Origin: an uncultured Candidatus Micrarchaeota archaeon
GTDB lineage: Archaea > Micrarchaeota > Micrarchaeia > Anstonellales > Bilamarchaeaceae
Length of the DNA: 64,000 nt
Direction: 5' to 3'
NCBI GenBank assembly: GCA_963714085.1
Contig: OY970229.1
Span: 632,392-696,391, forward strand
Shown: positions 12,668 through 56,852 of the stretch, piece by piece
Layout of the letters: each line of letters begins with the position of its first letter
Numbering within the stretch: position 1 is the first letter of the stretch
Notes under the pieces: generated by a model
What the model was told of the DNA's origin: nothing
Database searches by the model: none
The model's input: the letters and a program-made list of their open reading frames with translations, nothing else
Translations under genes and position numbers: made by a program

Positions 12668-12671
12668 GTGC

Positions 12672-25454: not shown

Positions 25455-25514
25455 GGATTGCAATGGTACGAGAAAGCTTATTAAGTTGCGACGTGTATCG
25501 GTTTGGGAGAAGAC

Positions 25515-31970: not shown

Positions 31971-31978
31971 TGCGATCA

Positions 31979-32563: not shown

Positions 32564-32902
32564 TCACATGAATTTCGTGTTGCATGCCGGGCACTGGGTG
32601 AGGAAGGCCTCGCTCCTGTACCCGCATATAGGGCATATGTAATAAGTCCTTTTAGCCCTTTCCAATTCGGCTTCGAAGCTGTATTTGCACTGGCCGCACC
32701 TCGGGGCGTCCAGCTCGTTGAGGAAACCGCAGTTCGGGCACTTGCGCCTGAACATGCTCTTTATGTGCGTGCCGCACTTCGGGCAGCGCTCCATGTCCAG
32801 CGTGACCGGGGCGCCGCAGTTCGGGCAGTTCTGCGACTGGCCCTTATGCGTGGAGCCGGACTGGCCGCGCAGCGCGTCCTTGAACATCTGGAGGATTCCC
32901 AT
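32564..32902 (-). CDS. Multi zinc-ribbon protein (six CxxC pairs)
   Basis: CPNCG...CPKCG...CPNCG...CGQCK...CPICG...CPACN in 112 aa. Confidence 0.7.
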   Translation of the reverse strand: MGILQMFKDALRGQSGSTHKGQSQNCPNCGAPVTLDMERCPKCGTHIKSMFRRKCPNCGFLNELDAPRCGQCKYSFEAELERAKRTYYICPICGYRSEAFLTQCPACNTKFM

Positions 32903-32910
32903 GCACCCAC

Positions 32911-35900
32911 CTATCCTGACCCGGGGGACGGCACGCAGTTTATGTCATAGTTCTTCACAGGCAGGCTGATGCCGCAGAACCCGCCCAGCTGGGTGAGCGA
33001 ATTGCCAGTCCCGATGCCGCAGTCCTGGTTCGCGTTTCCGGTCCTGGAGAACACCGCCGGGGCGGTCACGGACGTGTAGTACATCTGCTTGAAGTACGTG
33101 TAGTTGGCCCCGGTCGAATCCGTCAGGCAGCATTTGCCGGGCTTGCTCATGCCGGCCATCACGTCCTCGTAGGCGTCCGAGACCATGTTCACGGATTTCA
33201 CAAGCGGTTCTGACTCCTGGGTGCCGTTCCCGAAGCTCTCGGTGCAGTTGTATACCGTATTGGTCATGTTGCAGGGCGTGCATGGCTCGACCACGGTCTC
33301 ATCCGGGCATTTGTACTTGCCTACGTCCTCCAAGGGCACGCCCCCGGGCATCGTGCATTGGACGCCGTTGTCGCACGTCTTGCCGCACTCCCCCTGGGCC
33401 AGCTCCAGGGAGGTGCAGAGCGTGCAGTTCACGGACGGCACGGTAAACACCTGGACGAAAGTCGCGTACGGGTTGGTGCCGGCCATCCTGTTTATGGCGC
33501 TCTCGAGCGCGCAGAATTTCGTGGTTTTCATTCCGTATGGCAGTGCGATGCTGGTGCTAGTACCCGGCAGGGAAAACGACAGCACAGTGCTCACGAGGCT
33601 CTCCTTCTGCCCGGCCGTATTCGAGCTGTCGACGCGGACGGGCTGGTATATGAGGCCGATGATGCCGGCTTTCACCAGCTGGTCCTCGTTATTCACTATG
33701 CTGCTGAAGAGCGTCCCGTAGGTGTTGCCATTCCAGTATTGGTCGTCGGTCACGGTGAAATTGGTTATGATGACCGGCTTGCTATAGTTCAGCGCGGCCT
33801 CGCCATATGTCATCACGTCGTTGATCACGAATGAGGCCCTCGTGTCCGCTGTGATCGAACTGGCTGAGTATATCACCGTGTTCGCCAGCCGGGTTATGTA
33901 CCCCGCCAAGCCCAAAAATCCTCCTGCTGTGGCCGCCCCATTGCCGTAATTCGAGGTGTCGTAGTCGGTCACGATCATGTCGACGTTGACCTTCAGCCTC
34001 GGGTCGAAGCCGAATAGCTGGCTCAGGTCGTTATCGTAGGTCGATAACCCTACGCTGCTTCCTGGCACCCTAACCGCGGTCAGGCATCTGGGACAGGCCG
34101 CCCTGACCACCGCGGTCCTGTTCAATATCCTGTTCCTGGACAACGAAGCCGAGGAGGAATTGAACGTGTCCACGACCACCACTATCGCTCCGCTGTTGCC
34201 CAGGAGGCGCTGGAAATCGTACTCTTGGTACAGGCTCGAGTCCTGATGGCCCGATACTAAGCTGCTATCAACCCGTACTATCACATAGGGCGCGGTGAGG
34301 TTCCAGTTGCTGTTATCCGAGATGTCGATCACGGGCATTATGCCGGATTTGAGGTAGTTGCCCATGCGCTCCTTGATCAGGGTCGGGTCCTGGTCGGTCC
34401 TTGGAGCGCCTTCCGGAGTGACGTCGTAGGTGGTGTTCGTCACATAGACGCTGCCGCTGGTGCCCGAGTAGCCGTCTGTACTGCTGACGGATTCATAACC
34501 GGATGTCGACGTCACGTGATAGATGAACAGGTTGCTGTAATCTCCGATGTCGGTCACGTACGGGTCGCCGCAGGAGGTGGTAATGTTGCTCGGTGAGTTA
34601 GCCGTGATACTGCATATCGTGGTCGGGCTCACTCCCTGCCAGAGCTCCTGCTCCATCGATGGGATTGCCACCCTGTTGTCGCTGTTTGCGGATTTCGTGC
34701 CCGCTGTTATCTTCTGGTAAGCCAGGGTCGTGAGCGTGCACGGCTCGCACCAACCGAAGCTCTGGATCTGCGGCAGGGTCGAACCCGGCTCTATGTCGCA
34801 CCTGCCGATCTTCATGTTGCCCCCTGAATCCTTCGTGCCCACGAGCAGGTATATGGTGCTCGGGACCAGAGCCTGGTAAGCCATGGGTTGCCAGTCAAGT
34901 CCATTGCCCTGGCCCAGATTTATCTGCCTGATTGACGCCTTTTGGAGGTTGCAGAGGTTGTTTCCTGCGAAATAGGGCGAGGTTGTCTGCTGGTATATGT
35001 TGTCCTGGTCCCTGAAGAAGTTCAGCGCTGGCGAGTTCAGGATGTCGTACTCAGGGTCGCCATACTTGGGGTCGCCACCGCCGCCACCGCCGCCATCACC
35101 AGAATCGTCCCCGCTAGAAGAATAGTACGCTGGAATGGCCACGAATTTCTTGTACTCGGGTATCCACGGCATGGAGGCGAAGAACAGGTCATCGATGTCG
35201 ACTGAATTCGAGCGGTCGCAGTGCTCGTTCCACTCGTTAGCGTCATTCATATAGCCGTCCATGGTGTCGTTGTAGAGCGGCGCGAACGCGGTCAGAAGGC
35301 CTTGATAGGTGTCATAGAAGTCCTGCCCGGTGCCCGAGAGGTCGACTTTTATGTAGCTGGCGGTGGAAGGATAGCTGGTAACCGTATAATTGCACGGCGA
35401 GGGCGGCTCAGGATTGAATGTCGGGGCGTCTACCGGTGTGTCGGGGTTGGTTGTGTTGATGTAAGCTCTGCAATAAGCGAGGCATCTGCTTAATGTCGAA
35501 TAGGCGCCGTTGGCGTAATTAAACTCGTCAGCCGGGCACTTTCCTGACTTTCCTAGAGTTCCCGCGCAATCGTCCTGGCAGATGGTTACCATCTGGTTCG
35601 GGGTCACTGGCGAATTATAAATGGGTTGGCCCCCCGGCATAGCGTCGAACGAGTAGTTCAGCACTGTGCTCACGGACGCGAAGATGCAGCTCTTGGCGAA
35701 ATAGGTCTGCTCGAACTGCCCCGGGTCCGCCACCGCATAGCCGACTATGGTCTGGCCGTCGTATTGCACGTTCTGGTCGTCGAAGAACACGATCTGGCCC
35801 GCGGGCGGGTATGCGCCTGTCGTGTCCACATAGGAGTCCACCACATTGTTGGTCGAATCCCAGGTGACGCTGAAATCCGACGGAAGCAGGCTCACGGTCG

Positions 35901-37512
35901 CGGGGTCGCCGAACATCTCGTTCTGTATCGTATTGCCAAACTGATCCTGGTACGATCCAGTATTATAGAAGGAACCATCATTTGAGTCCCATAGCTGGAT
36001 GTAGGTGTTCGTACCATCGAAGTAACCGCCCCCAGATGTAAGAGGCGTAGTGAAGAAGTTGTTCCACATCCAGTCGAGCTGGCACTTGTCGTGCTTCTGC
36101 TCGCCGCTCGCCGCACAGCTCGGAATGCCAGCGATCGGTACGTTATCCTGGACATAAGGAGCGTTTTCGGTGTCGCTGCCTGCGTCCTGCAGCTGGTTCC
36201 TGTCGTAGTCCTCAGTGGCAAGCGTAAACTGGACCGGCCTGTAGGTTACGTTGGCGTACACGAAGCTGGCGGTACCGCCTGCGTTGCTCGCGTTGATGGT
36301 CGGGTAGCACACCACGACATTCTGGCCCGTCACCGTTTGGGTGCTCTTGCAGTCCGTGACCACGTAGCTCTGCGTGCCGGCCGCGTCCGTCACGACGTTC
36401 ACGCCCCTGCTGTAGAAATCGTTCGAGCATTCCCCGGAGAGGCACTCGTACGCGGATTTGTCGCACTCGAAGGGCGCGCGCCCCACCGTCGTGTTGTAGA
36501 ACTCCGGTATGTAAGCGGTGGAGAGCGCCTCCCTGTAGAATCCTTTATCCAGCTTCTCGTAGTAGTAAAGGGCAGATTTGTTCAGCCTGCTCGAGGAATT
36601 GGAATTGGGCCAGTCGACTACGCCGGTCGTCGGATGAAGCGTAACCGTCCAGGCATAACCGAGATAATCTATGTACTTGTAGGATTTGAAATCCGTGATG
36701 AAGCTCGGGTTCATGCTCAATGCCTTCGTGATGGTGACGTTCAAGAACGCGTTGGTTCCTGCGGTCGTGAGCGGCAGTATGCTCGCGGTCGGGGTTATGC
36801 TCGCTGGGGGCACCGGCGCCGCGTCGCTCGTGCATGATGTGTTCATCTTCGTCGGGTCGTAGGCGACGTAGGTGCCGGATGCGGTCCCGGGCTGCAGGTA
36901 ATTCATGTACCTGTCTATGGTCCCGGTGGGGTTGATCATGCAGTCCTTGTCCGATATGGGGAAGTAATAATGATAGTAGTCGTATTCGTCGAAATTCGCT
37001 CCTATGCCGAACCTGAAGTCCCCTACCGCGGATTTCGAGGTCTTCATGATCCTCTCGAAGCTCGAGTCCAGGGGAAGGAACCTGCACTGGCCGTTGTAGA
37101 GCGCCTGCGTTTTCGTGCTGGTGCTGCTGGTCGGCATCTCGTTCGCCGCCTCCTGCACCGAGGCCACCCCGGGCGCGACCTGGGGCGCATAGGCGAAATC
37201 GCCGCACGCCATGGCCAGGCAGTCCGGCTTTATGCACTCGGTCAGGTTGTCGTCCGTGCAGAATGGTATGGCAGAGTCGACCGAATCGATGGTGACGTTG
37301 CACATCTCGCTGGTCTGGTTGCAATAGATGGTCTGCGGGTACATGTCGATGAAGGCGTCGTTGGACATGTTGAACCAGTAGCATTTGCCGTCTTTGGTCG
37401 CGTTGTTCCTGACGCAGCAGCCCAGCTCCTTGGATTTGGTTATGCAGCCCGCGGAGAGCAGCATGGCGAAGGCGATCGCGAGCGAGATTGCGAGTGCGGT
37501 CCTGGGCTTCAT
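32911..37512 (-). CDS. Giant (1533 aa) exported Cys-rich, sequon-rich protein with a lipobox-like signal peptide
   Basis: N-terminus MKPRTALAISLAIAFAMLLSAGC. No other TM. Numerous Cys and N-x-S/T sites. Gly run SGDGGGGGGGDP. Start abuts the stop of the upstream membrane gene. Confidence 0.8.
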   Translation of the reverse strand: MKPRTALAISLAIAFAMLLSAGCITKSKELGCCVRNNATKDGKCYWFNMSNDAFIDMYPQTIYCNQTSEMCNVTIDSVDSAIPFCTDDNLTECIKPDCLAMACGDFAYAPQVAPGVASVQEAANEMPTSSTSTKTQALYNGQCRFLPLDSSFERIMKTSKSAVGDFRFGIGANFDEYDYYHYYFPISDKDCMINPTGTIDRYMNYLQPGTASGTYVAYDPTKMNTSCTSDAAPVPPASITPTASILPLTTAGTNAFLNVTITKALSMNPSFITDFKSYKYIDYLGYAWTVTLHPTTGVVDWPNSNSSSRLNKSALYYYEKLDKGFYREALSTAYIPEFYNTTVGRAPFECDKSAYECLSGECSNDFYSRGVNVVTDAAGTQSYVVTDCKSTQTVTGQNVVVCYPTINASNAGGTASFVYANVTYRPVQFTLATEDYDRNQLQDAGSDTENAPYVQDNVPIAGIPSCAASGEQKHDKCQLDWMWNNFFTTPLTSGGGYFDGTNTYIQLWDSNDGSFYNTGSYQDQFGNTIQNEMFGDPATVSLLPSDFSVTWDSTNNVVDSYVDTTGAYPPAGQIVFFDDQNVQYDGQTIVGYAVADPGQFEQTYFAKSCIFASVSTVLNYSFDAMPGGQPIYNSPVTPNQMVTICQDDCAGTLGKSGKCPADEFNYANGAYSTLSRCLAYCRAYINTTNPDTPVDAPTFNPEPPSPCNYTVTSYPSTASYIKVDLSGTGQDFYDTYQGLLTAFAPLYNDTMDGYMNDANEWNEHCDRSNSVDIDDLFFASMPWIPEYKKFVAIPAYYSSSGDDSGDGGGGGGGDPKYGDPEYDILNSPALNFFRDQDNIYQQTTSPYFAGNNLCNLQKASIRQINLGQGNGLDWQPMAYQALVPSTIYLLVGTKDSGGNMKIGRCDIEPGSTLPQIQSFGWCEPCTLTTLAYQKITAGTKSANSDNRVAIPSMEQELWQGVSPTTICSITANSPSNITTSCGDPYVTDIGDYSNLFIYHVTSTSGYESVSSTDGYSGTSGSVYVTNTTYDVTPEGAPRTDQDPTLIKERMGNYLKSGIMPVIDISDNSNWNLTAPYVIVRVDSSLVSGHQDSSLYQEYDFQRLLGNSGAIVVVVDTFNSSSASLSRNRILNRTAVVRAACPRCLTAVRVPGSSVGLSTYDNDLSQLFGFDPRLKVNVDMIVTDYDTSNYGNGAATAGGFLGLAGYITRLANTVIYSASSITADTRASFVINDVMTYGEAALNYSKPVIITNFTVTDDQYWNGNTYGTLFSSIVNNEDQLVKAGIIGLIYQPVRVDSSNTAGQKESLVSTVLSFSLPGTSTSIALPYGMKTTKFCALESAINRMAGTNPYATFVQVFTVPSVNCTLCTSLELAQGECGKTCDNGVQCTMPGGVPLEDVGKYKCPDETVVEPCTPCNMTNTVYNCTESFGNGTQESEPLVKSVNMVSDAYEDVMAGMSKPGKCCLTDSTGANYTYFKQMYYTSVTAPAVFSRTGNANQDCGIGTGNSLTQLGGFCGISLPVKNYDINCVPSPGSG

Positions 37513-38598
37513 TCATATCACCTTGGTCACCATTCTCATCAGCGTGTACGGGTCTCCGCCCAGCAGGGTCATCATGTAGCGCACGAAGGCGAGCGTGAGG
37601 AAGAGAGCGACGAGGGGCTGCAGTATGAGGCCTATGTAGGCCTGCGAGAGCTGGTCGCTGATACGGGCGAAGCTGAGCGACTGTGTCGCGGCGCCCGCGG
37701 TGTTGGTGGACACCATCGCCACCGCTGCGCTGAGCGTGGGATAGCAGAGCTGCTGCGCCAGGACCTGCGGGCTCCCCATGACCGGGGGCGAGTCCACCTT
37801 CACGAAGCCCGGGTCCAGAAGCACGAAGAAGACCGGGAACAGGAAGAAGAGCCCGACGCCGAGCGAGATGAACAGCGCGCCCGCGCCCCTCGTGAACTGG
37901 AACGAGCGGAGCAGTATGCCCAGCGGTATGAACATCGTCAGCATGGTGTTCTTCACGTAGAGCACCAGGAAGGACTGGGCGTCCAGCCCTATGAGCAGCA
38001 CCGTGGCGAGGTTGTTCGATATGCGTATGGACTCTGTCTCCTGGAACATGCTGCCTATCCAGTCGCCCCTGAACACTGTGATCCCGAAGAACGATACCTG
38101 CATGTTGAGCAGGTTGAAGTCCAAGGCGCTGCCGCTGACGATGGCGTCCTGGATCTTCGCTATGGCCATCGCCTTCTCCTGGAGCCTGCACTGCACTATC
38201 GCGAGCATATCCTGGAAGGATTGCGTTGCGACCTGGTCCGAGGTATCGGACGGGCCATTTATGTTTCCGGCCATGACCGGCATCTGCGTGCCGCCGCATG
38301 TGACGTAGGAGCTGCTGCTCCCCAGGACGCCGGCCACGAACGAGCCCGCGCCGGTGACGATGGTGGCGCCGCCGATGAGACACATCGCCATCAGGGCGGT
38401 TGCGATCGCCTGGAGTATCTCGGATTCGGCGTAATGCTCCAGCTCGGTCATTTTGAATGCCTTGGCGAACGCGATGAACAGGGCGTAGATGGTGACGGCT
38501 ATCAGCGTGGCGAGTATGCACATGGGGAGCCAGCTGGCCCAGCTCCCGAAGAAATCCATGGCGTCAAGCAGCGGCATAACAGGCAACATAGTCATCAC
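37513..38598 (-). CDS. Polytopic membrane protein, paralog F of a six-member tandem family
   Basis: 361 aa. Motifs HYAESEILQAIAT, GILLRSFQFTRGAGALFISLGVGLFFLFP, and C-terminal LLGGDPYTLMRMVTKVI. ATGA overlap with the upstream paralog. Confidence 0.8.
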   Translation of the reverse strand: MMTMLPVMPLLDAMDFFGSWASWLPMCILATLIAVTIYALFIAFAKAFKMTELEHYAESEILQAIATALMAMCLIGGATIVTGAGSFVAGVLGSSSSYVTCGGTQMPVMAGNINGPSDTSDQVATQSFQDMLAIVQCRLQEKAMAIAKIQDAIVSGSALDFNLLNMQVSFFGITVFRGDWIGSMFQETESIRISNNLATVLLIGLDAQSFLVLYVKNTMLTMFIPLGILLRSFQFTRGAGALFISLGVGLFFLFPVFFVLLDPGFVKVDSPPVMGSPQVLAQQLCYPTLSAAVAMVSTNTAGAATQSLSFARISDQLSQAYIGLILQPLVALFLTLAFVRYMMTLLGGDPYTLMRMVTKVI

Positions 38599-39770
38599 AC
38601 CATCTGGAGCAGCCTGCTCAGGTCTATCTCCTCACCGTAAATCCTCGCCAGGTAGTTCACCGAGGCCAGTGCCGCGAGCAGCGCGGCGGTCGGCAGGAAC
38701 ACTCCGGCTATGAACGCGTAGGCCGCGAATGCTATCGCCCCCGCGGCGTTATCGACGCCGCCCGGGAAATATAACTTCTCGAAGTAGGCCGCCCCGCTGC
38801 TCAACGCGGCCGCCGTGGATGCGCCCAGCGCGCTGGCGCCGGCATTGTTGGGGAACACGTTCTCGTCCAGGAAGGGCGCCACATTCTGAGGCGGGCTCAG
38901 CAGCACGTCCGTCATCATCCCGAGTATCGCGAGCATGAGGGGGTATATCACCATGAACGAGAGGGCCAGGGCTATGAGCAGGGAGCCGAAGGAGCGCATG
39001 TAGGGCATGGAGCGCATGAATATGGCGAACGGGAGCAGGAACAGCACGAATCCCTTGTATATGAACATCAGTATGAACAGGAAATTGAGCGTCGTAAGGT
39101 ATGCGACGAGGGTGCTGTTGAAGAACAGGTTGAGGGGGCCCATGACCGAGGAATAGGCGCCGAGGGCCGGGCCCTGGGTGCCGGAATAGGAGAAGAAGCA
39201 GCCCCACCCTATTGCCGGGATCGTGAAGACCCCGAAGACGCTTATCGGCGGCTGCCTCAGGTCGCAGCTGAACATGCTTATCTGGCTCAGGATGGTGAAG
39301 GCCTCGAGATGGTAGCGCACCATCATGAGCGCGGTATGGCTGTAGATCAGCGTATTGGTGAGGTACGCCTGCGCCGCGGAGTACACCGAGCCGGAGTAGT
39401 CCGAACCGATGGGCACCCCGAATATGGACGCCACGTCGCCCATGTTTATCGCGCAGAAGGAGTCCACCAGGAAGAGCAGGAGCGCCACTGAGGCCACGGA
39501 CATGAGTATCTGGATTATCTCCCCTTTGGCCCAGACGGTCACCTTGGGATTGCTTATGATCTGGCCTATGTAATAGCCGAACACTATGATCATTATGCCG
39601 GCCGCGCTTGCGATCGCGCATATGTCCAGTATCGGTCCGTTGAGGATCGTGTCGAATCCCGGGGAGCACACCTCGGTCCCTTCGATCGGCGGCGTAGCCG
39701 GTGGCACGGCCGCGTGCAGGGCGCTTATCAGCAGGAGGAGGAACGCGAGGAGGAGGATGTGTTTCGCCAT
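38595..39770 (-). CDS. Polytopic membrane protein, paralog E
   Basis: 391 aa. Signal peptide MAKHILLLAFLLLLISALHA. Motifs TVWAKGEIIQILMS, AIFMRSMPYMRSFGSLLIALALSFMVIYP, and C-terminal IYGEEIDLSRLLQMV. Confidence 0.8.
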   Translation of the reverse strand: MAKHILLLAFLLLLISALHAAVPPATPPIEGTEVCSPGFDTILNGPILDICAIASAAGIMIIVFGYYIGQIISNPKVTVWAKGEIIQILMSVASVALLLFLVDSFCAINMGDVASIFGVPIGSDYSGSVYSAAQAYLTNTLIYSHTALMMVRYHLEAFTILSQISMFSCDLRQPPISVFGVFTIPAIGWGCFFSYSGTQGPALGAYSSVMGPLNLFFNSTLVAYLTTLNFLFILMFIYKGFVLFLLPFAIFMRSMPYMRSFGSLLIALALSFMVIYPLMLAILGMMTDVLLSPPQNVAPFLDENVFPNNAGASALGASTAAALSSGAAYFEKLYFPGGVDNAAGAIAFAAYAFIAGVFLPTAALLAALASVNYLARIYGEEIDLSRLLQMV

Positions 39771-40748
39771 TCAGACCACCCTCGACAGCGCGCTCACGTC
39801 GACCTCCGCTCCGGCGAGCGAGGTTATGGCCCTTATGCCAGCGCTCATCATGAGCACCGCGACGACGGGGCCCAGCGTGGCTTTCACGAATATCAGGTAC
39901 ATGTAGGACTTTATCGCGGTCCTGAGCGAATTGTACACTTTTATGGCGGCGTCCGAATTGCCGTCACCGACGTCGCCCGGCGTGCATGAGGGGCTGATGC
40001 CGCTCAGGCTCCCGCTCCCGGGCTGGTAGCCGGCCGCGTCCGGGCTGGCCAGGAACGACTTGCCGAGTATGTCAACGAAGACTATGCCCATGGGCAGCAG
40101 GAGGTAGAGGGAGATGGCCAGCGCGATGAGGAAGCCGCCCGCGCCGCGCGTGAACCTGAAGGTGCGCAGCACGATGCCCAGCGGCAGGATCAGGTTCAGC
40201 CCGTAATTGACCGCGATGTCTATCAGCCGGTAGGCCGCGTTCAGCTCGCCCAGCGCGAAGCCCATGATGGTGCCTGCCAGCGAGAACGGGCCCGCGAGCA
40301 TGGAGAACCCGCCGCATCCGGACACGGAGTATCCTATGCCCTGGAGGTTGCAGGAGAGCATCTGGGAGCCCTGTATGCCCGCGTTCTTGTCCACCGCGCG
40401 CACGTCGTCATATGCCGAGGACAAGTCGGTTATGGAGGTGTTCAGGCTGTCGAGGGCGGCCAGCTGCAGCGTGGGCGCTCCCTGGGTGAGGTCCGAATTC
40501 GTTGACAGCCCGTCTATGAAACTGTTCGCGCCGTAGAAGACCGCGATCATGATGGCGAGCGCGATGAGCTGGTAGACCTCGTCCTTGGCCAGCGCGGTGA
40601 GGGCGTCGACGCCGAAGCCGAACCCTATCATGTACACCACCGCGACCAGTATGAGGGATGTGAGGATGGCCAGGGCTGCCGTGTCCTGCCATGCGGCGAA
40701 GCTGGCGGACACCAGCAGGAACAGCGCCAGCAATGCCTTTCCCTTCAT
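39771..40748 (-). CDS. Polytopic membrane protein, paralog D
   Basis: 325 aa. Signal peptide MKGKALLALFLLVSASFA. Motifs LAKDEVYQLIAL, GIVLRTFRFTRGAGGFLIALAISLYLLLP, and C-terminal LAGAEVDVSALSRVV. Confidence 0.8.
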   Translation of the reverse strand: MKGKALLALFLLVSASFAAWQDTAALAILTSLILVAVVYMIGFGFGVDALTALAKDEVYQLIALAIMIAVFYGANSFIDGLSTNSDLTQGAPTLQLAALDSLNTSITDLSSAYDDVRAVDKNAGIQGSQMLSCNLQGIGYSVSGCGGFSMLAGPFSLAGTIMGFALGELNAAYRLIDIAVNYGLNLILPLGIVLRTFRFTRGAGGFLIALAISLYLLLPMGIVFVDILGKSFLASPDAAGYQPGSGSLSGISPSCTPGDVGDGNSDAAIKVYNSLRTAIKSYMYLIFVKATLGPVVAVLMMSAGIRAITSLAGAEVDVSALSRVV

Positions 40749-40757
40749 AATATCGCC

Positions 40758-42890
40758 TCAGAATATCCTTGACATGCCCGGGATCTCCACGTCCCCGCCA
40801 AGCATCTCGGAGAGGGACTTTATCACTATGAGCGTCGCTGCTATGTTCAGCAGCGGAAGCAGGTAGGCCGGCCCCATGAACTTGGCCACAGACTGTATCT
40901 CCTGCGCGCCGACCATGCCCTCGGCCCCTATCTGGGTATACGCGCCGGACGTCTTGGACGGCCCGCTGTCCGAAGGCGCGCACAGGTTCGTGCATTCGGT
41001 GTCTATCGGAGGGTTGTAGGTGTACGACTCCTGGCTGGTCGCGCACGTGTCGCATGAGCTGTAAGGCACCTGCACCCGATAATCCAGGGGGCAGCTCGTG
41101 GGGGAGCAGTCCTCGTGTATAACCCAAAAGTCGAAGTCAGTGAGGTATAGGGCCGGGAGGTTCGTGCCGATTATCCTCATATCCTCCGGGCAGGTGCTGC
41201 AATTGATGCTGTCCGTGGGGGCCTTCGCCTCTATGGCGGCCAGCGGCACCTTGCACGTGTCAGGGCATTGCTTGCACGAGACGCCGTCCTCGCTGTCATT
41301 GCTGCAGTATTCCGGGAGTATCTTCGACATGTCGGACGTGCCGTTGTTCATCCTGCACTCCTCCGGGCATCCGGTGCACAGGTCGTCGCACGAGCCGAAA
41401 TTGGGCATCACCCAGACGCAGCTCTGGTTCGCGTCCAGGCTCGCGATGCAGTCCTTGGGATACGTGTTGCAGCGGCTGGCGTTCGCGACGCTCGGGTCCA
41501 CGGAGGGCCTCCAACTCAGGTCGCTCACCTCCGCCACCCTGCAGTCGAACCTCGACTGCAGGCAGTTGCCTCCTGACTTGTTCCCGTTATTGGCGTTCAG
41601 ATCGCAGTCGCTCCTCAGCGGCGGGACTATCTTGCACTCGCTGGGGCATGCGGCCGCCTCGGTGGTGTTGATATGCACGATTATGCGGGTCACCTTGCAT
41701 TCCGCTGGAAGCGCCGCGCATGCGAACTGCTGGGTGTAGTTCGCGCACAGGTTGGAGCCTGCCGGGTAGGGAAGATCCCTGCAGGAGCGGTCGCAAGCAA
41801 TGTCACACTGACCGTTTCCTCCGCAGCTCGGATCGGTTATATGCACGGTCCAGTTCTCGCAGGAGGTCACGTTTACGCCGGAGTTGTTGAGCATGGAGTG
41901 GGTGTTGCCGAGTATGAGGTCCCTGACGGCGTCTGTCTGCGAGTCGTCGAACAGGGCGTATACCTGCGTGGTGGTGTTCAGGGCCACCGTCTCGCCGCCC
42001 TGCTTGTAAAAGGCGATCGGAGCCACGTAGCTGCATTCCGCTGGGCAGAAGCTGGGGAGCGTACTGCTCGCGTCCCCGGTTATCGTCATGTCGAGGCTCA
42101 TCCAGTCGAAGATGTACATGGCCGGGAAGAAGAACATCACTCCCACGGCGATTGCTATGAGGAGGCCGCCTACCTTGCGCGATATGAAGAACGACCGCGC
42201 CACTATGCCCAGCGCGAGAAGGAGCGGCGCGACCTTGAAGCATATCTCGCTCACGAAGAATACCTGGGAGTATAGCGAGGACAGCACGCCCTGGTAGTAC
42301 TCGAAGACCAGGCCGTACCTGTCGGCATCCAGTATGTAATTGGCCCAGAGCGACCATGTCACCCCGGCCTCCGCGCACCATACCGAGTAGCAGTAGATCC
42401 CGAAGCGCCTGTTCGCCCAAGCGGTGGCCACCAGGTCCTGGTGCAGCACGTTCTTCGCACCGTCCTGCGCGATTCCTATGTAGTCGCTCAGGTAGGCGTT
42501 CGCGGTCTTGTTCAGGCAGTTCTCGCCGGGGACGCAGTGGAGGCCTCCTATGCCGGAGGCGTTCACCATGGTCATGGTCGTGACATCCATGAGCGCGACT
42601 ACGCCTATGAGCGCGATCACGATGATCGCGTTCGCGAACACCTGGCCAAGCTCGCTCCTAGCCCAGGCCTGCATCTCGGGCAGCTCGAATCCTATACCCA
42701 CCATGTAGCCGATGCCCACGAGCACGGTGGATAACACGAGGGCGATCACCGAGATGGACTGCCAGTTGTTGAACAGCTCGAACGCGGAGCTGGACGGAGC
42801 CTGCTGCACGACCTGGGTGACGTTCTGGGCGAGCGCCGTGGCTGATAGCAGCAGAAGGACGATCGCCAGCGTGAGTCTGTGCTTCATCAT
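40758..42890 (-). CDS. Polytopic membrane protein, paralog C, with a ~360-aa Cys-rich ectodomain insertion
   Basis: 710 aa. Signal peptide MMKHRLTLAIVLLLLSATALA. Motifs AWARSELGQVFAN, GIVARSFFISRKVGGLLIAIAVGVMFFFP, and C-terminal MLGGDVEIPGMSRIF. The insertion carries CPAEC, LPAEC, CPSEC, CPEEC, CPDTC and CPED motifs. Confidence 0.8.
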   Translation of the reverse strand: MMKHRLTLAIVLLLLSATALAQNVTQVVQQAPSSSAFELFNNWQSISVIALVLSTVLVGIGYMVGIGFELPEMQAWARSELGQVFANAIIVIALIGVVALMDVTTMTMVNASGIGGLHCVPGENCLNKTANAYLSDYIGIAQDGAKNVLHQDLVATAWANRRFGIYCYSVWCAEAGVTWSLWANYILDADRYGLVFEYYQGVLSSLYSQVFFVSEICFKVAPLLLALGIVARSFFISRKVGGLLIAIAVGVMFFFPAMYIFDWMSLDMTITGDASSTLPSFCPAECSYVAPIAFYKQGGETVALNTTTQVYALFDDSQTDAVRDLILGNTHSMLNNSGVNVTSCENWTVHITDPSCGGNGQCDIACDRSCRDLPYPAGSNLCANYTQQFACAALPAECKVTRIIVHINTTEAAACPSECKIVPPLRSDCDLNANNGNKSGGNCLQSRFDCRVAEVSDLSWRPSVDPSVANASRCNTYPKDCIASLDANQSCVWVMPNFGSCDDLCTGCPEECRMNNGTSDMSKILPEYCSNDSEDGVSCKQCPDTCKVPLAAIEAKAPTDSINCSTCPEDMRIIGTNLPALYLTDFDFWVIHEDCSPTSCPLDYRVQVPYSSCDTCATSQESYTYNPPIDTECTNLCAPSDSGPSKTSGAYTQIGAEGMVGAQEIQSVAKFMGPAYLLPLLNIAATLIVIKSLSEMLGGDVEIPGMSRIF

Positions 42891-42891
42891 G

Positions 42892-43854
42892 TCACCCTAG
42901 TGCCCGCAATGCTTTGTTAGTTGCAGCGATGAAGGTTATGAACATTGCCATTGTGAGGTTCGGCAGGAAGAACGCCTGCGGTATCAGCCTCCCCACGTTC
43001 CAGAACCCGTAGGTGGCGCAGCCCGGGCCGAACACGAAATCGTTGACGCCGGCGGCGAACGTGCTGCAGTTCTGGCCCATTATGTCGTACATGGACAGGT
43101 TGAACGCGTACATGAAGGGCACGAGCACGTAGAGCCCCACAGCCACGGCGATGAGCATGTTGCCCATGTTGCGGAAGGGGGGTATCACCCTGAAGAGGAA
43201 CGCTATGGGCAGCACCCAGGTTATCACGTTGCTGTTTATGAATTCCAGGACCATCTTCTGCATGTTGATGCTGATGAGCGCGGGCAGCACGAAGCTGTTC
43301 ATCACCATGTCGTACTGCTGGGCATGCACCTTGAGGTAGCTGTCCGCCACCGCGGTGTACGCGTCCATCAAGGGAATCTGGACCGTGAATGCGAATGTGG
43401 ACTGCATCATGAGCTGTATGTTCTGGTTGATGTAGTACTGGGCGATGTTGTCCGCGTCGTCCTGCGCCATTTTGATGTAGCACATGGAGGTCGCGTTCAT
43501 GTTGCCTTGCACGTAGCACGAGAGGGTCCCCATCTTGGACATTGTGGAATCGAAGAAATAGTTCATGGTCTGGCAGGAGACGAGCAGTATGCCGGAGAAG
43601 CCGATGAGCAGCAGGATCGAGAAGAACAGATGGTAGAGCTCGTCCTTTGCCAGCACGGTGAGCCCGGAGTTGCTCGTGATGCTGCCGCCCGCGTACGCGA
43701 CCGCGATTATCATCACCGTCAGGCTGAATGCCGCGACTATCGCCGCCCCCTGGCCGTTCACCGGATCCAGTATCGCCTGGGTGGCATTGCCTATGCAGGA
43801 CGATGCGGAGAACACCGCGGGCATCAGGAGAAGGAGCAGCAGCAGGCGCCTCAT
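42892..43854 (-). CDS. Polytopic membrane protein, paralog B
   Basis: Start at MRRLLLLLLLMPAVFSASSC (comp. 43852-43854), overlapping the paralog A stop by 1 nt. Motifs LAKDELYHLFFS and AFLFRVIPPFRNMGNMLIAVAVGLYVLVP. Confidence 0.75.
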   Translation of the reverse strand: MRRLLLLLLLMPAVFSASSCIGNATQAILDPVNGQGAAIVAAFSLTVMIIAVAYAGGSITSNSGLTVLAKDELYHLFFSILLLIGFSGILLVSCQTMNYFFDSTMSKMGTLSCYVQGNMNATSMCYIKMAQDDADNIAQYYINQNIQLMMQSTFAFTVQIPLMDAYTAVADSYLKVHAQQYDMVMNSFVLPALISINMQKMVLEFINSNVITWVLPIAFLFRVIPPFRNMGNMLIAVAVGLYVLVPFMYAFNLSMYDIMGQNCSTFAAGVNDFVFGPGCATYGFWNVGRLIPQAFFLPNLTMAMFITFIAATNKALRALG

Positions 43855-45059
43855 CACACAAACCTCTGTATCCCGGCTAGATACCATTCGCCGCCGAGCG
43901 CAGTCGAGATGCTGCGCGCCCCGGACATGGTTATTATCGCTATCACTATGGTGTCGAGGTAGCTGAGCAGGATGGCGTTGTTAACGTTGCTCAGGAAGGT
44001 CACGAGCACTCCGAACGCCTGGTCAGTGTAGCCGACGCCCTCCCCGGCGAACGCGATCCAGGCCCCGAGGGCGGTGTCGTAGCTGACCTGCAGGCCTATC
44101 ATGAGGAGGGGGTATACGACGTACTGCACCAGGTCCTGGCATGGCAGGAAGAATCCGGCTGTCCAGGGGGTCAGAAGGAGCGGCAGGCACACCACTATGG
44201 AGAAGAGGAGGTCGTTGAGCGAGAGGAGCACGCGTATGGGCATGAGCTCGCAGAACGGCTGCGCCACGGTCATCGCCCACGTGCCCGGGTCCAGCTGGTC
44301 CAGCTGGGAGCTGGTCAGGTATGCCTTCGGATAGTCGATGACCTTGTTCGTCTCTCCGATCAGGATGACCGAGAACGGCACGAGCACCATGCCCGCGAGG
44401 CAGATGGCGACCAGCGTGTTCCCGGTTTTCCGCGTGAACGGGATCATGCGGAGGGAGAGCGAGACGGGCAGCAGCACCGCGGGCACGGCAGTGGCGCAGA
44501 ATTTGAGGATGAACAGCAGGCCCTCGTAGATGAAGATGCTGTTCGCGATGCCGCTGGTCGCTGAGGTGAGCGAGGAGAAAAGCGGGGCCACGCCGCCCAG
44601 CGGGGACGTCGAGTATGTCAGGCCCACTACGTACAGGGGGACGCTGATGTATGGGGAATACGTCGCAGCGGCCCTTATCTTGGTCGCGGCCCTTATGATG
44701 TCGTCGAACGACCGGTCCAACCCGGTCGTCTGGTTAGTCATGAGGTTGGTTATGACGTCCTGCGAAGCGGTCAGGTAATCTCCCTGACCGGTTATCGCCT
44801 TCGTCAGGCTCGTGGAGCCCACGAAGAACGCGTATATGAGCGCCGCGAGTATCACGCCGGCGATGAGCTCCCGGAGCTCGTTCTTGGACCAGGCCTCCAG
44901 CTGGGGCGATGAGACCGCGGTGGAGAGCATCATCATCAGTGCGAGGAATATGGCCACCAGCACGGCCGTGATCGGCACTATTGACGTGAAGTCGGGGCCG
45001 GATGCGAATGAGAGTCCGAGCACGATTAGCAATAGCAATAGGTGCCTGAACGGACGCAT
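43854..45059 (-). CDS. Polytopic membrane protein, paralog A (first gene of the operon)
   Basis: 401 aa. Signal peptide MRPFRHLLLLLIVLGLSFASG. Motifs AWSKNELRELIAG, LSLRMIPFTRKTGNTLVAICLAGMVLVP, and C-terminal ALGGEWYLAGIQRFV. Confidence 0.8.
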   Translation of the reverse strand: MRPFRHLLLLLIVLGLSFASGPDFTSIVPITAVLVAIFLALMMMLSTAVSSPQLEAWSKNELRELIAGVILAALIYAFFVGSTSLTKAITGQGDYLTASQDVITNLMTNQTTGLDRSFDDIIRAATKIRAAATYSPYISVPLYVVGLTYSTSPLGGVAPLFSSLTSATSGIANSIFIYEGLLFILKFCATAVPAVLLPVSLSLRMIPFTRKTGNTLVAICLAGMVLVPFSVILIGETNKVIDYPKAYLTSSQLDQLDPGTWAMTVAQPFCELMPIRVLLSLNDLLFSIVVCLPLLLTPWTAGFFLPCQDLVQYVVYPLLMIGLQVSYDTALGAWIAFAGEGVGYTDQAFGVLVTFLSNVNNAILLSYLDTIVIAIITMSGARSISTALGGEWYLAGIQRFV

Positions 45060-45079
45060 GCTAACATCTCCATGGTAAT

Positions 45080-45089
45080 GATTAAAATG
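45080..45089. promoter_or_regulatory. Single central AT-rich TATA-like element in the 50-bp divergent gap
   Basis: gattaaaatg is centred about 25 nt from both divergent start codons (comp. 45059 and 45110). Confidence 0.5.
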
Positions 45090-45109
45090 CTTGTTCCTGA
45101 TAGTTCATT

Positions 45110-48100
45110 ATGCGGACGAGACTGCTTTTTGTGGCATTGCTGGTTTTAGTAGCGCTGATGGCCCGGCCGATCATGGCCGACTGCACGATCCCTGGCACCG
45201 ACTGCCCGGCGTGCAGCGAGACGAACGGCGTGCCCCAGGCGCAGATGTTCCTCAAGGTGAATTCCGCGAATGAGTCGCTCGTCGGCACCTTTTTCTACGA
45301 GAACATCTCCGACGAGGCGAATCCCAGGCCGCTGCTCGTGGACGCGCCCGTGATAGTGGAGATGTACAACAACACCGTAGACAAGACATACCGCATATAC
45401 ACGGACGCGAACGGCAAGGCGGTGTTCGACTTCTCGGCGTACGCAGGAGCATGCATGAACTTCAAGGTCATGTACTGCCCCTTCGCATGCACCACCGGTC
45501 CCTCAAAGTCGGACTGCGGGTTCCAGAACTGCCTCAATTACTCCGGCATACCGTGCAGCCCGGGCACGTGCCTGGCCTCATGCACAGCAGGGAGCGTATT
45601 GGACGCCCCTAACATCCAAGCTCCGCAGACCCCGCAGTGCTACATCCTGCTACCGACCATGGACACCGCGAGCTACTGCCCGCCGCCGCCCCCGATCAGC
45701 AGCGTGCCGGCGATATGCTTCCCGCTGCTGCTCATATTCGCTGTGCTCGGAGGCGGGCTTTTCCTCAGCGGGAAGAATCCGTTCGGGGGCTTCGACTTCA
45801 CCACTCCGAGGACCGGGAAGCACATAAGGTACGAGGCCAAAGGCAGGGGGCTCGGGGTGAGCGCGCCGAACGTAGTCACCCAGAAGATACACGAAACCGG
45901 AAACAAGCTCGCGACAGCCGGCGCGAAGAAATTAGCTGGCGGAGCCGCTTCACTGATGGCAGGAGGCGGCAAAAAGGGAGCGGCCGCATCCGCGTCTGTC
46001 GCAGGACACATAGAAATGAAGCAAGCAGGAGGACAGAGAGGAGGCGGCATGGTCACGATGGCCGGCGGCAGGACGATGGCGACGGGAAGCCCTGCTGAAA
46101 GGTTTGGCGGTTTCGGGAAGGTCCTGGGCCTTGTCGGTTATGGGATCAAGGGGACTGTACAGGCCATAAGCGGGAATACCACCGGCGCGAAAGCCACATT
46201 CATGAAAAGCTCGATGATATCCCAGAGCGTGGGCGGCATCAAGAGCATGGTTAATACCAACAGGGCCGTGAATAAGGCTATGGCGAATGCCGCTTCGGCC
46301 AACCCCATCGTCTACACTCCGGTGGCATGGGCGATGCTCATCTCAACGCTGAAGAACGCCCAGGACGTGAATGATGGGAAGAAAACCCAGGCCGGATTGG
46401 GCTCGATCGTATCCCAGCTCATGAATGTCAAAAAAGGGAAGGCAGGCGCCAAGACAACCATAGATAATTCCAAGACAGTGACGGTGAAAGAAAACCCCGC
46501 GGATCCAAATAGCAAGAATGTGAACAAGGTCGTATACGAGATGACAGTAGGGGGCAAAAAGGTGGTGGCGACGCTCGATGAGGCCTCCCTGCGCCTCGGC
46601 AAATTCAACGGGACTGTGACTGTCGGAAACAAGACAGTCAATATAGAAGAAGGCAAGGTTGTAAGCGGCTGGAACGAGCTGGGCGGCAAGGACAGGAACG
46701 CGGTGACAGACAGGGTCAGCATCAGCGAGGTCAGGCAGCTGGTGGATGGGGATAAGACCGCCAAAAAAGAGCTCGAGAAAACTGGCACGACCACGGTCAC
46801 GCTGGGCAGTGGAGAGACGATAAAGGTCTCGGTCGCTGCCGATAAGGAAGGCAAGTTCAGCGCATCCGCGATCAGCGATGAGAAAGGCACCAAGGGCAGT
46901 TTCACCATAACGACCTCGGATGAGCGGGTGACCTTCGTCAAAGACGGCAAACCCACGACGCCTATTGGCGAGAGACTCGACATGACCGAGATCACGGGCA
47001 AGCTGAGGAGCGAGGGCGCCATGAGCGATATCGCGGAATCCGGCAAGACCACGATCAAGCTGGAAAGCGGGGAGAAGGTGACGGTCATAGCCGCGGATGT
47101 CGCTTCCCTGGATAGCGGCAAGTTCAGCATAAAGACAGACGATGACAAGATAGTGGTGGTCGATACCAGCAAGAAGGATCCGAACACTGGCAAGCCGGAT
47201 CCAATCGTATCCGTGGGCACGTCCATAACCGGAGCCAGTGATCTGGCCGCGACCGGGAAGGAGTTGGGCATGCCTGCCATCACCGCCACGCTCACTGCTG
47301 CGGTGACCATGGAAAGCAGGTTCAGCTCAAACGAGTACGGCGGCGCGGTCACGGTGGTGACGAACCCGCTCGGCTCGCCGGACGACTATACGGTCATAAG
47401 GCCCCGAGACAATGACGACTTGAAAGGCGTGGCGTTCGAGGTCGTTGATGGGAAGGTCAAGACGATAACCGACAATAGCACCGGCGAGTCCCTGAAGGCA
47501 GACAGCACGACCGGGATCAAGGTGGGCTCGGGCGCACCCGGATACATACCGGACAAGGTGGCCGCACTCGGCGCATCCGTGGTGCAGGTGCAGATGGCGG
47601 GCCAGGACCTGGCGAACGATACCATGAGACTCGAAAAGTCGCTCCACGACATCCGCGTGACCGACTCCGTGAGCAGCGCCAACGGAGGGGCACCGGAAGA
47701 GGTGAGGGATTACCTCAGCGAGCACCCCGAGGTGCACGCGACGATTATCCAGCAAGCGCACGAGGATGCGATAGAGACAATGGCGAGGAAGGATTATCCG
47801 GAAAAGGCGGATGAATTCAGGGCAGCGAACCAGCAGTTTGAGAAGGACAGGCAGACCATGGGTTCTGAGGCGGCATACGACAAGGATCTGAAGCCGGTCA
47901 CGGAAAAGCCATTCGAAGAGTTTGCAGCGAGGTCCGTCAGGGAAGAGACAAGCTCGCAGGGAGCGAGATACGCCGAACTCGTCAACAAGCCGGAGATCAG
48001 CGAGGGCCTCAGTTACGATGAGATCGCGAAAATGAAGGCGGATACGAAGCCGTATGGTGCGGCGATGGCAGCGGCCGCGGCGACCGAGCTCCAGTCCGGA

Positions 48101-48511
48101 GCCAGGAGCGATACCGAGGTGCGGATCCACGAGATAGGCGTATACGCGCAGGCAGAAGCCAAAAACACGGGCCCGACCGAGCCGCAGAAAGGGGTGGACA
48201 TGCTCAACTCCGCGATAGCGAGTCTCCAAAAGGAGGAACAAGAAAGGAAACCTCCCGAAGCTGCCGAAGCAACGGCCCGGCAGGCAGTCGTACCGGTCAG
48301 GACAGGCGGCGGGGGATCCGAACCGCCATCCAAACCCGAGACCCCGGCCGTCAGCGAACCCGTCAAACCAGAGGCGCCGGAAGAAACGAAGCGGGCCAAA
48401 CGTGAAGAGACAGTGACCCCCAGCGAACCCGTCAAAGTCGAGAAGCCCGAGGAGCGGGAAGCAGAGGAAACCACGAAGCCCAGGAAGAGGGGCGGCAAGA
48501 AGGAATCCTGA
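45110..48511 (+). CDS. 1133-aa single-pass membrane protein: Cys-rich ectodomain, one TM, then a long repeat-containing K/G/T/E-rich region
   Basis: Signal peptide MRTRLLFVALLVLVALMARPIMA. Cys-rich ~190 aa. PPPPP then TM PAICFPLLLIFAVLGGGLFLSG. Internal repeats (TGTTTVTLGSGETIKVSVAADKEGKFSAS / SGKTTIKLESGEKVTVIAADVASLDSGKFSIK). Acidic/basic tail. Confidence 0.8.
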   Translation: MRTRLLFVALLVLVALMARPIMADCTIPGTDCPACSETNGVPQAQMFLKVNSANESLVGTFFYENISDEANPRPLLVDAPVIVEMYNNTVDKTYRIYTDANGKAVFDFSAYAGACMNFKVMYCPFACTTGPSKSDCGFQNCLNYSGIPCSPGTCLASCTAGSVLDAPNIQAPQTPQCYILLPTMDTASYCPPPPPISSVPAICFPLLLIFAVLGGGLFLSGKNPFGGFDFTTPRTGKHIRYEAKGRGLGVSAPNVVTQKIHETGNKLATAGAKKLAGGAASLMAGGGKKGAAASASVAGHIEMKQAGGQRGGGMVTMAGGRTMATGSPAERFGGFGKVLGLVGYGIKGTVQAISGNTTGAKATFMKSSMISQSVGGIKSMVNTNRAVNKAMANAASANPIVYTPVAWAMLISTLKNAQDVNDGKKTQAGLGSIVSQLMNVKKGKAGAKTTIDNSKTVTVKENPADPNSKNVNKVVYEMTVGGKKVVATLDEASLRLGKFNGTVTVGNKTVNIEEGKVVSGWNELGGKDRNAVTDRVSISEVRQLVDGDKTAKKELEKTGTTTVTLGSGETIKVSVAADKEGKFSASAISDEKGTKGSFTITTSDERVTFVKDGKPTTPIGERLDMTEITGKLRSEGAMSDIAESGKTTIKLESGEKVTVIAADVASLDSGKFSIKTDDDKIVVVDTSKKDPNTGKPDPIVSVGTSITGASDLAATGKELGMPAITATLTAAVTMESRFSSNEYGGAVTVVTNPLGSPDDYTVIRPRDNDDLKGVAFEVVDGKVKTITDNSTGESLKADSTTGIKVGSGAPGYIPDKVAALGASVVQVQMAGQDLANDTMRLEKSLHDIRVTDSVSSANGGAPEEVRDYLSEHPEVHATIIQQAHEDAIETMARKDYPEKADEFRAANQQFEKDRQTMGSEAAYDKDLKPVTEKPFEEFAARSVREETSSQGARYAELVNKPEISEGLSYDEIAKMKADTKPYGAAMAAAAATELQSGARSDTEVRIHEIGVYAQAEAKNTGPTEPQKGVDMLNSAIASLQKEEQERKPPEAAEATARQAVVPVRTGGGGSEPPSKPETPAVSEPVKPEAPEETKRAKREETVTPSEPVKVEKPEEREAEETTKPRKRGGKKES

Positions 48512-48843
48512 TGCTCTCCCATGAAAGCGGCGCCAAAGGCACCAAACCCATCAAGCGCCTCGAGAACCTGCTCACGTTCGGCAACCTCTGGCTCTACATC
48601 CTCTCGCTAATAAAGAGGAAAGGCAGGGCTTACGCCTACATGCTCGACTCCGGCATCGAGAAGGAGTTCGCGTTCAAGCCTTCCAAGGTCATGGTCTACA
48701 TAGTGCTCTACAAACTCGAGAACGAGGGCCTCATAAAGTCCGAGTTCGAGGAGCGCAGGAAGTACTACAGCATGACGAAGAAGGGCGACGGCACCCTCAA
48801 GGCGGCGAGGCAGTATTTCAAGGTCCTTGCAAGCAAACTGTGA
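48511..48843 (+). CDS. PadR-family transcriptional regulator
   Basis: LWLYILSLIKRKGRAYAYML...MVYIVLYKLENEGLIKSEFEERRKYYSMTKKG: PadR wHTH pattern. The ATG overlaps the upstream TGA by 1 nt. Confidence 0.8.
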   Translation: MLSHESGAKGTKPIKRLENLLTFGNLWLYILSLIKRKGRAYAYMLDSGIEKEFAFKPSKVMVYIVLYKLENEGLIKSEFEERRKYYSMTKKGDGTLKAARQYFKVLASKL

Positions 48844-48849
48844 CCTAAG

Positions 48850-56731: not shown

Positions 56732-56852
56732 CCCGCCTTAGCTCAATGGTAGAGCGGTCGGCTGTAGCTTGGTCCGGCTCCTTTTTGGAGCTTCACTACT
56801 GTAATCAGCAGTAGATACCGACAGGTTGCTTGTTCAAGTCAGGCAGGCGGGA
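56732..56852 (+). tRNA. tRNA-Tyr (anticodon GTA, 56764-56766) with a 49-nt intron at the canonical 37/38 position
   Basis: Acceptor CCCGCCT/AGGCGGG. D arm GCTC-AATGGTA-GAGC. Anticodon stem GTCGG/CCGAC. T arm GCTTG-TTCAAGT-CAGGC. Discriminator A. Intron about 56768-56816. Confidence 0.8.

Follow-up and report, generated by a model that had tools for sequence, protein, structure and literature searches.

What do six tandem genes for divergent, polytopic membrane proteins do in the envelope of an archaeon, and why would they be kept together? The question is raised by a locus in a stretch of 64,000 nucleotides (nts) from an uncultured micrarchaeon of the family Bilamarchaeaceae (contig OY970229.1 of assembly GCA_963714085.1, positions 632,392 to 696,391), the whole of which is referred to below as the window. 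Micrarchaeota are tiny archaea and form a major DPANN lineage. The organisation of their envelope, and their exchange of material with other cells, are essentially unknown at the molecular level, and the locus is a concrete candidate for a part in them. Work on cultured strains has described surface layers (S-layers), contacts and nanotubes, and has named no symbiont-side membrane machinery (bioRxiv 10.1101/2021.04.28.441871; PMC8975820).

The answer favoured here is a tentative one, held at somewhat less than even confidence: the six genes would specify six non-interchangeable subunits of one hetero-oligomeric membrane complex, working with a giant surface protein whose gene is directly downstream and probably with a single-pass membrane protein whose gene is upstream and divergent. 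The locus as a whole is best explained as a chromosomal, vertically inherited, Micrarchaeota-specific envelope module. It takes up ~15.6 kb of a small genome, and its architecture is the same in all the complete loci examined, which span several orders.

Six paralogues of one membrane protein family

A sequence-only reading of the window had proposed that six consecutive minus-strand genes encode paralogues of one signal-peptide-bearing, polytopic membrane protein family with three motifs in common. The six open reading frames (ORFs) are present, in the ORF list and as translations, and their coordinates are given in Table 1; the products are called p1 to p6 in the order of transcription, and residue numbers for the family are those of p1. 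Pairwise identity among the six proteins is ~21%, and their MAFFT alignment places the three motifs in common columns, confirming that these are positionally equivalent. True paralogy is also evident at the level of profiles. With six orthogroup profiles, each drawn from 29 lineages, all 15 pairs match (hhalign probability 95.9–99.8%, E 5e-9 to 7e-28).

Conservation within the family is concentrated in very few positions. In an alignment of 174 family sequences R204, R210, G213 and P228 reach 100% conservation and E61 reaches 99%, and these five are the sole essentially invariant residues that the paralogues, at ~20% identity, have in common. Positions near the 80% level are L197-P198, C270 (83%) and G389 (82%). 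The third motif, an acidic C-terminal tail, had been noted in five of the six proteins, and the exception proves to be conserved in its own right: p2 ends in ...KALRALG, its orthogroup terminates at ...KALRxIG in 29/29 lineages, and the acidic tail, missing from p2 in every lineage, is found in 0/29 of its orthologues vs 27–29 of 29 in each of the other five orthogroups. Each orthogroup that has a tail has a distinct and strongly conserved one.

Successive genes of the array are very closely spaced. The p1/p2 junction is GTGTGATGA, with stop and start codons overlapping by 1 nt, as had been claimed at position 43854. At the p5/p6 junction, GTGTGATGA, there is a 4-nt GTGA overlap if the start codon is GTG, and a 1-nt overlap if it is ATG, in place of the ‘4-nt ATGA overlap’ that had been read at 38595–38598. 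Direct abutments had also been claimed, and p4/p5 is one. The end of the p6 gene likewise abuts the downstream 1533-codon ORF directly (TGAATG). In other loci independent gene calls put nearly all the array junctions between −4 and +14 nts, with a single one at +38.

Constancy of the array across Micrarchaeota

A scan of GTDB species representatives with the p1 motif yielded 38 loci with a p1 orthologue, one for each of 38 species representatives, and all of them are from Micrarchaeota. When a hidden Markov model (HMM) of the six proteins was run over all ORFs of these and of other fetched loci, 29 loci were complete and non-redundant. In each of these (29/29) the family is represented by six genes, neither more nor fewer, which share one strand and one order, and the third member is always the long one (640–1683 amino acids [aa] in loci other than that of the window). 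By best-hit mapping, the gene at a given position corresponds to the window paralogue at that position in 29/29 loci, or 28/29 for positions 1 and 2, where the exceptions are due to one ORF-calling artefact.

The fixed number, the fixed order and the one-to-one orthology point to duplications older than the radiation of these archaea, with no copy lost or gained since. Features specific to single orthogroups, such as the p3 insert, the loss of the p2 tail and the individual tail sequences, argue for non-redundant roles. The six genes thus arose before the radiation and have been kept ever since as distinct, non-redundant genes. A fixed design of six paralogues predicts a hetero-oligomer with one of each, and that prediction is testable.

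The array does not travel alone. A gene for a single-pass protein of 1000–1500 aa accompanies it in 34 loci, upstream and divergent in all except one, and the gene for the giant protein is immediately downstream of it in 33. The block consisting of the single-pass gene, the six paralogues and the giant gene is the core module, and it is retained in distant Bilamarchaeaceae though other neighbours change. Named homologues of the window proteins are all from Candidatus Micrarchaeota, Micrarchaeia or Bilamarchaeaceae (in the NCBI taxonomy the last belongs to phylum Microcaldota, class Micrarchaeia).

A family with no recognised relative

The motifs had not been recognised when the sequence was first read, and no library tried here (Pfam, NCBIfam, PHROGs, PDB or BFVD) recognises the family either. 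None of the six proteins has a match in Pfam, NCBIfam or PHROGs. With 76 diverse members searched against Pfam at E<=1 there was single-member noise, and no two members matched the same Pfam family. Searches of PDB sequences, whether from single proteins or from three profiles, gave nothing meaningful, and the AlphaFold2 (AF2) model of p1 had no Foldseek match at E<=0.001 in PDB or BFVD.

The family is nonetheless a sizeable one. An HMMER search that covered all of 1.84 billion cluster representatives (metagenome clusters at 50% identity, of which ~2,900 belong to the family) retrieved 2,912 proteins at E<=0.001, of which 1,963 also pass E<=1e-10. The named matches are ‘hypothetical’ bar one and none carries a precomputed Pfam domain. 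The one exception, JGI record P0378, is an orthologue of p4 labelled ‘voltage-gated potassium channel Kch’; there is no Pfam or other support for the label, which looks like an annotation artefact. No relative was found on IMG/VR viral contigs and the flanking genes are housekeeping genes, on which grounds an origin from a virus or other mobile element was rejected. A description of the family or of the locus was sought in the literature searched, and none was found. Nor does any database model or solved structure match the protein family. Even if its role proved to be structural, the family would be new among membrane proteins and would serve as a marker at the level of the phylum.

Topology and predicted structure

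Hydropathy gives each protein five transmembrane (TM) helices, preceded by a signal peptide in five of the six. The description of the family as signal-peptide-bearing consequently holds for p1 to p5 and fails for p6, whose N-terminus has no such segment. The segments between the helices are of two kinds. K/R is abundant in loops 1 and 3 and in the tail (13%, 28% and 12%, respectively, over the 174 sequences), and these segments have essentially no Cys and no N-x-S/T sequons; loops 2 and 4 are acidic, have 2.0 and 7.5 Cys per sequence, and are where the sequons are located. This composition suggests that the N-terminus is outside and the C-terminus inside (N-out/C-in), with the motifs cytoplasmic and the variable, Cys-rich loops outside. 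E61, R204, R210 and G213 would then be at the predicted cytoplasmic face and P228 within TM4.

In p1 there is an additional hydrophobic helical pair within outside loop 4, and in p3 this loop holds the long insert; the whole p3 protein has 39 Cys and 15 sequons.

An AF2 monomer of p1, run on an 82-sequence alignment (predicted local distance difference test score [pLDDT] 82.6, predicted TM-score [pTM] 0.67), is all-helical apart from one small β-hairpin. Its helices comprise residues 52–90, 155–205, 207–240 and 301–388, and the very long ones, of 51 and 88 residues, are modelled as projecting beyond the membrane. Helices of this kind are typically seen in subunits that are packed together in larger bundles.

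The two large partners

The giant protein has 51 Cys, ~30 of which are invariant, 28 sequons and an invariant, lipobox-like G22-C23. It has 35 homologues, found in Micrarchaeota only, and none has a Pfam domain. For residues 880–1533, AF2 (pLDDT 75) predicts a (β/α)8 barrel at roughly 1040–1360. Foldseek comparison of the barrel model with PDB gave 76 matches at E<=0.001, headed by glycoside hydrolase (GH) families GH10 and GH2 with probability 1.0; the best is the GH10 structure 1e0v (E 1.4e-5, probability 1.0), and GH5-type enzymes were also matched. The predicted barrel thus resembles clan GH-A glycosidases (GH10 xylanases, GH2 glucuronidases and GH5/GH164; E 1e-5 to 5e-4, target TM-score ~0.45), whereas the protein in which it is embedded is Cys-rich, lipoprotein-like, confined to Micrarchaeota and has no Pfam or PDB sequence match. 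The catalytic Glu pair of the clan, at the ends of strands 4 and 7, is not conserved among the 35 homologues, and D1063, D1066 and D1178 are the only conserved acidic residues within the barrel strands.

Could the giant protein be the S-layer protein? The S-layer protein of Micrarchaeota has a PF05123 domain and few sulfur amino acids (bioRxiv 10.1101/2021.04.28.441871). With its 51 Cys and no Pfam hit the giant protein is quite different, and the identification was rejected. By BLASTP, the insert of p3 has no module in common with the two large proteins encoded next to the array.

Conservation of the single-pass protein of 1133 aa extends over the ectodomain, the TM helix and a juxtamembrane segment, NPFGGFDFTTPRTGKHIR, and is poor in the ~900-aa, Lys-rich cytoplasmic tail. 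The 50 bp between the start codons of its gene and of the p1 gene contain one central ATTAAAAT element, which suggests shared control of the two transcripts. Judged from its sequence and position, the element may be a TATA box serving two near-leaderless divergent transcripts. In one locus (L005) the homologue of the single-pass gene is downstream of the giant gene and not upstream of the array. A DsbA/thioredoxin-like gene is present in the same locus (L005 6319–7221), between the PadR and kinase genes, and it fits the disulfide-rich ectodomains of the module.

A proposed hetero-oligomeric complex

The case for one complex is built on several features taken together. These are the invariant copy number and order, the one-to-one orthology, the subunit-specific features, the translational coupling, the charged cytoplasmic residues common to all six and the strict co-conservation with two large envelope proteins. 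In such a complex each subunit except p6 would be exported by a Sec-type signal peptide and cross the membrane five times, N-out/C-in. All three motifs would contribute to the cytoplasmic face: motif 1 the invariant Glu that follows TM1, motif 2 a tight hairpin that joins TM3 to TM4 and has an invariant R-x5-R-x2-G, and motif 3 an acidic C-terminal tail that differs from subunit to subunit. These charged elements may mediate contacts between subunits, or provide a docking site for a cytoplasmic partner, or both, and the 1133-aa product of the divergent gene is a candidate for docking there through its conserved juxtamembrane segment. The outside face would consist of helical extensions of the TM segments and of variable, disulfide-rich, glycosylated loops, the largest being the p3 insert, and it may hold or organise the co-transcribed giant Cys-rich lipoprotein with its glycosidase-like triosephosphate isomerase (TIM) barrel. 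Overlapping stop and start codons would give the six proteins in roughly equal amounts, which accords with a complex that has a single copy of each. Such a complex could serve as an anchor, as a conduit or as an assembly platform.

Several points weigh against this reading. The evidence for a physical association of the six proteins is indirect, and their topology is predicted from hydropathy and composition. There is no ATPase or other energy source at the locus, and an active machine would need the proton-motive force or distant partners. The fixed order could partly reflect general synteny, as conservation extends to the neighbouring genes for ScpB and for a Fap7-like kinase. Lastly, the named-record search of the family gave only proteins of uncultured, metagenome-assembled genomes, and none from the cultured acidophiles Ca. 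Micrarchaeum harzensis A_DKE, Ca. Mancarchaeum acidiphilum Mia14 or Microcaldus variisymbioticus ARM-1.

Conduit, platform or receptors?

The six proteins may instead form a conduit or carrier in the envelope by which lipids or other hydrophobic molecules are taken up or exchanged, comparable in function to the Mce1A–F tunnel or to the lipid-binding five-TM proteins TTYH and prominin; this is unlikely, though it survives better than the other alternatives. It would serve organisms of which many are unable to make lipids themselves. Mycobacterial mce operons contain six tandem MCE paralogues, MceA–F, that form one hetero-hexamer. These operons and the array both have six ancient paralogues in a fixed operon order, with one of each per lineage, which implies a one-of-each envelope hetero-oligomer, and in both cases the organisms depend on foreign lipids. 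The mce operon is a closer organisational analogue than VirB6 or CedA, and the analogy is one of organisation only. The array proteins have five TM helices and are not single-pass, no PF02470 (the MCE domain), YrbE/MlaE-type permease or ATPase is encoded at the locus, and no similarity in sequence or fold to Mce was detected.

The comparison with TTYH and prominin starts from the fold. These have five TM helices in an N-out/C-in arrangement, and their ectodomain is made of long TM-helix extensions and is glycosylated and disulfide-bonded, all of which is like the topology deduced for the array proteins. The top seven non-redundant Foldseek PDB matches of the p1 model are mostly TTYH1/2/3. They are weak (E 0.016–0.08, probability 0.2–0.69, TM-score 0.15–0.19, with the scores to TTYH at ~0.19 only), and neither the six proteins nor the 76 diverse members match Pfam Tweety. 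TTYH proteins are also homo-dimers and exclusively eukaryotic, whereas the array is a set of six paralogues, and we know of no TTYH counterpart of the cytoplasmic E, R-x5-R-x2-G and tail motifs.

A need for such a conduit can be envisaged, as cultured Micrarchaeota have incomplete lipid pathways, few transporters and lipids identical to those of the host (PMC8975820). Against this, the locus is also present in large-genome lineages, including that of the window itself (a 1.57 Mb contig), and some large-genome orders of Micrarchaeota have been proposed to be less host dependent (PMC12892359). The module may then be a general envelope device and not a host-contact device. In its most specific form, which is speculative and held at low confidence, the proposal is that one of each of the six paralogues, with the giant glycosidase-like lipoprotein and the single-pass partner, make up a new hetero-hexameric, envelope-spanning conduit that takes lipids or building blocks from neighbouring cells. 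If this were true, archaea would have a functional counterpart of the Mce machines whose five-TM fold is unrelated to theirs, and the conduit would supply the molecular basis that is missing for DPANN–host exchange in Micrarchaeota.

A somewhat less probable alternative is that the six are a platform for the assembly, anchoring or maturation of the giant lipoprotein, or of the S-layer or surface glycans, with a function in envelope biogenesis and not in transport or contact. It accommodates well the co-transcription and strict co-conservation of the giant, lipobox-bearing gene product, the glycosidase-like fold of the C-terminal part of this protein (with GH10 1e0v as the best match) and the nature of the accessory neighbours, which include the DsbA-like gene, a predicted secreted Lon_C protease and a zinc-ribbon protein. 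The lack of a clear anchor for the S-layer protein of Micrarchaeota is also in keeping with it (bioRxiv 10.1101/2021.04.28.441871). It has more difficulty with the six proteins themselves: they have no recognisable catalytic signature, their conserved residues are on the predicted cytoplasmic face, away from exported substrates, and six different subunits for one client would be unusual. The barrel, moreover, is without the two conserved catalytic Glu of the clan.

That the six are independent, diversified surface receptors, sensors or adhesins, clustered by shared regulation alone and with no joint assembly, seems doubtful. The outside loops are highly variable in both length and sequence and a conserved PadR regulator is encoded beside the locus, and both points speak for this reading. 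However, copy number normally varies in families of that type, and here number and order are invariant in 29/29 loci, with one-to-one orthology. Translational coupling points to fixed ratios, and conservation is concentrated on the cytoplasmic face that all six have in common.

Comparison with VirB6 and CedA

The sequence-only reading had likened the array to the tandem divergent VirB6 paralogues of Rickettsiales type IV secretion systems (T4SS) and to the VirB6-like CedA of archaea, and had suggested profile comparison with TrbL/VirB6 (PF04610). The likeness is that these, too, are polytopic inner-membrane proteins that can be divergent tandem paralogues, and as an organisational analogy it stands; homology to VirB6/TrbL is unsupported by profile comparison, PF04610 search, Foldseek or gene content. 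Authentic VirB6 proteins from Ti and other plasmids, used as a positive control, match PF04610 at 57–79 bits. Neither the six proteins nor the 76 diverse members match it at E<=1. When three family profiles were compared by hhalign with a five-member alignment of the authentic VirB6 proteins, the probabilities were 0.3%, 0.1% and 0.65%. In two of the three runs the best sub-threshold alignment paired TM5 and LGGExD...R of the family with TM1 and MRGExDxRxGIxRV of VirB6 (residues roughly 30–70), and at a probability of <1% this pairing is treated as chance. No T4SS chain is among the 50 Foldseek PDB matches listed for p1, the completeness of VirB6 models in PDB being unverified.

Gene content agrees. 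No VirB4/VirD4/VirB2/3/8-10-type or pilin gene is present in the conserved module, as seen in the window and six independently annotated loci, and no VirB4, VirD4 or pilin gene is in the module in any lineage. Nor does the module contain Ced partners (the VirB4/HerA-like ATPase CedB or the small CedA1/CedA2). The nearest HerA-type gene, for an ATPase with DUF87 and a HAS barrel (25503–27026, plus strand), is separated from the array by 10.5 kb and lies five genes away on the opposite strand, and there is none near the locus in Bilamarchaeaceae. The array is part of the chromosomal core and not of a mobile element. Membership of VirB6/TrbL was rejected. The reading of the six as a VirB6/CedA-like set of channel components for T4SS or DNA transfer, for which the tandem divergent paralogues and the HerA-type gene might have spoken, is largely refuted and highly improbable.

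Neighbouring genes and other features of the window

Table 1. Position and character of the array genes, the partner genes and the accessory genes in the window
Feature	Coordinates	Strand	Size and character
Paralogue 1 (p1)	43854..45059	-	401 aa; signal peptide + five TM helices; motifs 1–3 (ORF and translation, MAFFT, AF2)
Paralogue 2 (p2)	42892..43854	-	320 aa from ATG at 43854; longest ORF (331 aa) reaches 43887
Paralogue 3 (p3)	40758..42890	-	710 aa; family core + ~400-aa insert in outside loop 4
Paralogue 4 (p4)	39771..40748	-	325 aa; minimal member; closest to the rest
Paralogue 5 (p5)	38595..39770	-	391 aa
Paralogue 6 (p6)	37513..38598	-	361 aa with GTG, 360 with ATG; sole member without an N-terminal signal-peptide-like segment
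Giant secreted protein	32911..37512	-	1533 aa; abuts p6 (ORF, alignment, AF2)
Single-pass membrane protein	45110..48511	+	1133 aa; divergent from array; Cys-rich ectodomain 1–200
Divergent intergenic region	45060..45109	.	50 bp between start codons; single central AT-rich ATTAAAAT element
PadR-family winged-helix regulator	48511..48843	+	Start overlaps stop of 1133-aa gene; 31 loci
Double-zinc-ribbon protein	32564..32902	-	112 aa; 8 nt downstream of giant gene; accessory
Lon_C (S16 protease domain) protein	30222..31970	-	Signal peptide, C-terminal TM helix; accessory

Downstream of the single-pass gene, and on the same strand, are genes for the PadR regulator (31 loci), a Fap7-like AAA_18 kinase (30 loci) and ScpB (29 loci). 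In the window the four genes abut or overlap (45110–49946, plus strand), and they are syntenic in ~30 lineages. Genes for chromosome segregation and ribosome maturation are odd companions for one that encodes an envelope protein. The housekeeping neighbours in the window include Elp3, ScpB, the Fap7-like kinase, a tRNA-intron endonuclease, the proteasome alpha subunit and HerA, and together with two intron-containing tRNA genes they mark the DNA as archaeal.

On the other side, the giant gene is followed by the genes for the zinc-ribbon protein, a 188-aa protein and the Lon_C protein, both here and in a lineage whose p1 orthologue is ~46% identical; the zinc-ribbon gene is kept in related lineages and lost in Bilamarchaeaceae. 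The longest Lon_C ORF, of 732 aa (30222–32420), overlaps the upstream 188-aa gene, and the likely start is at 31970 (MDPRCFLF..., 582 aa). From its sequence, the product would be an S16-type protease domain that is secreted, is anchored in the membrane and lacks an ATPase.

The 275-aa protein encoded after HerA (27081–27908, plus strand) matches nothing in Pfam and may be a NurA-like partner. In a related lineage (L051) the part of the region with the 275-aa and Elp3 genes is visible and HerA was not seen, and in Bilamarchaeaceae no part of this region is near the locus.

A TnpB/IS605-family OrfB gene with a Cas12f-like TNB domain (51435–52769, minus strand) is outside the conserved block, beside the gene for aspartate carbamoyltransferase. 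At 11162–14945 (plus strand) a DsbD_2/HMA/cupredoxin fusion is encoded beside a copper-type P1B ATPase (HMA + E1-E2 ATPase), and the two look like a metal-resistance pair unrelated to the array. Two intron-containing tRNA genes of 121–127 nts, at 4918–5044 and 56732–56852 (plus strand), are found by Rfam and missed by ARAGORN in bacterial mode.

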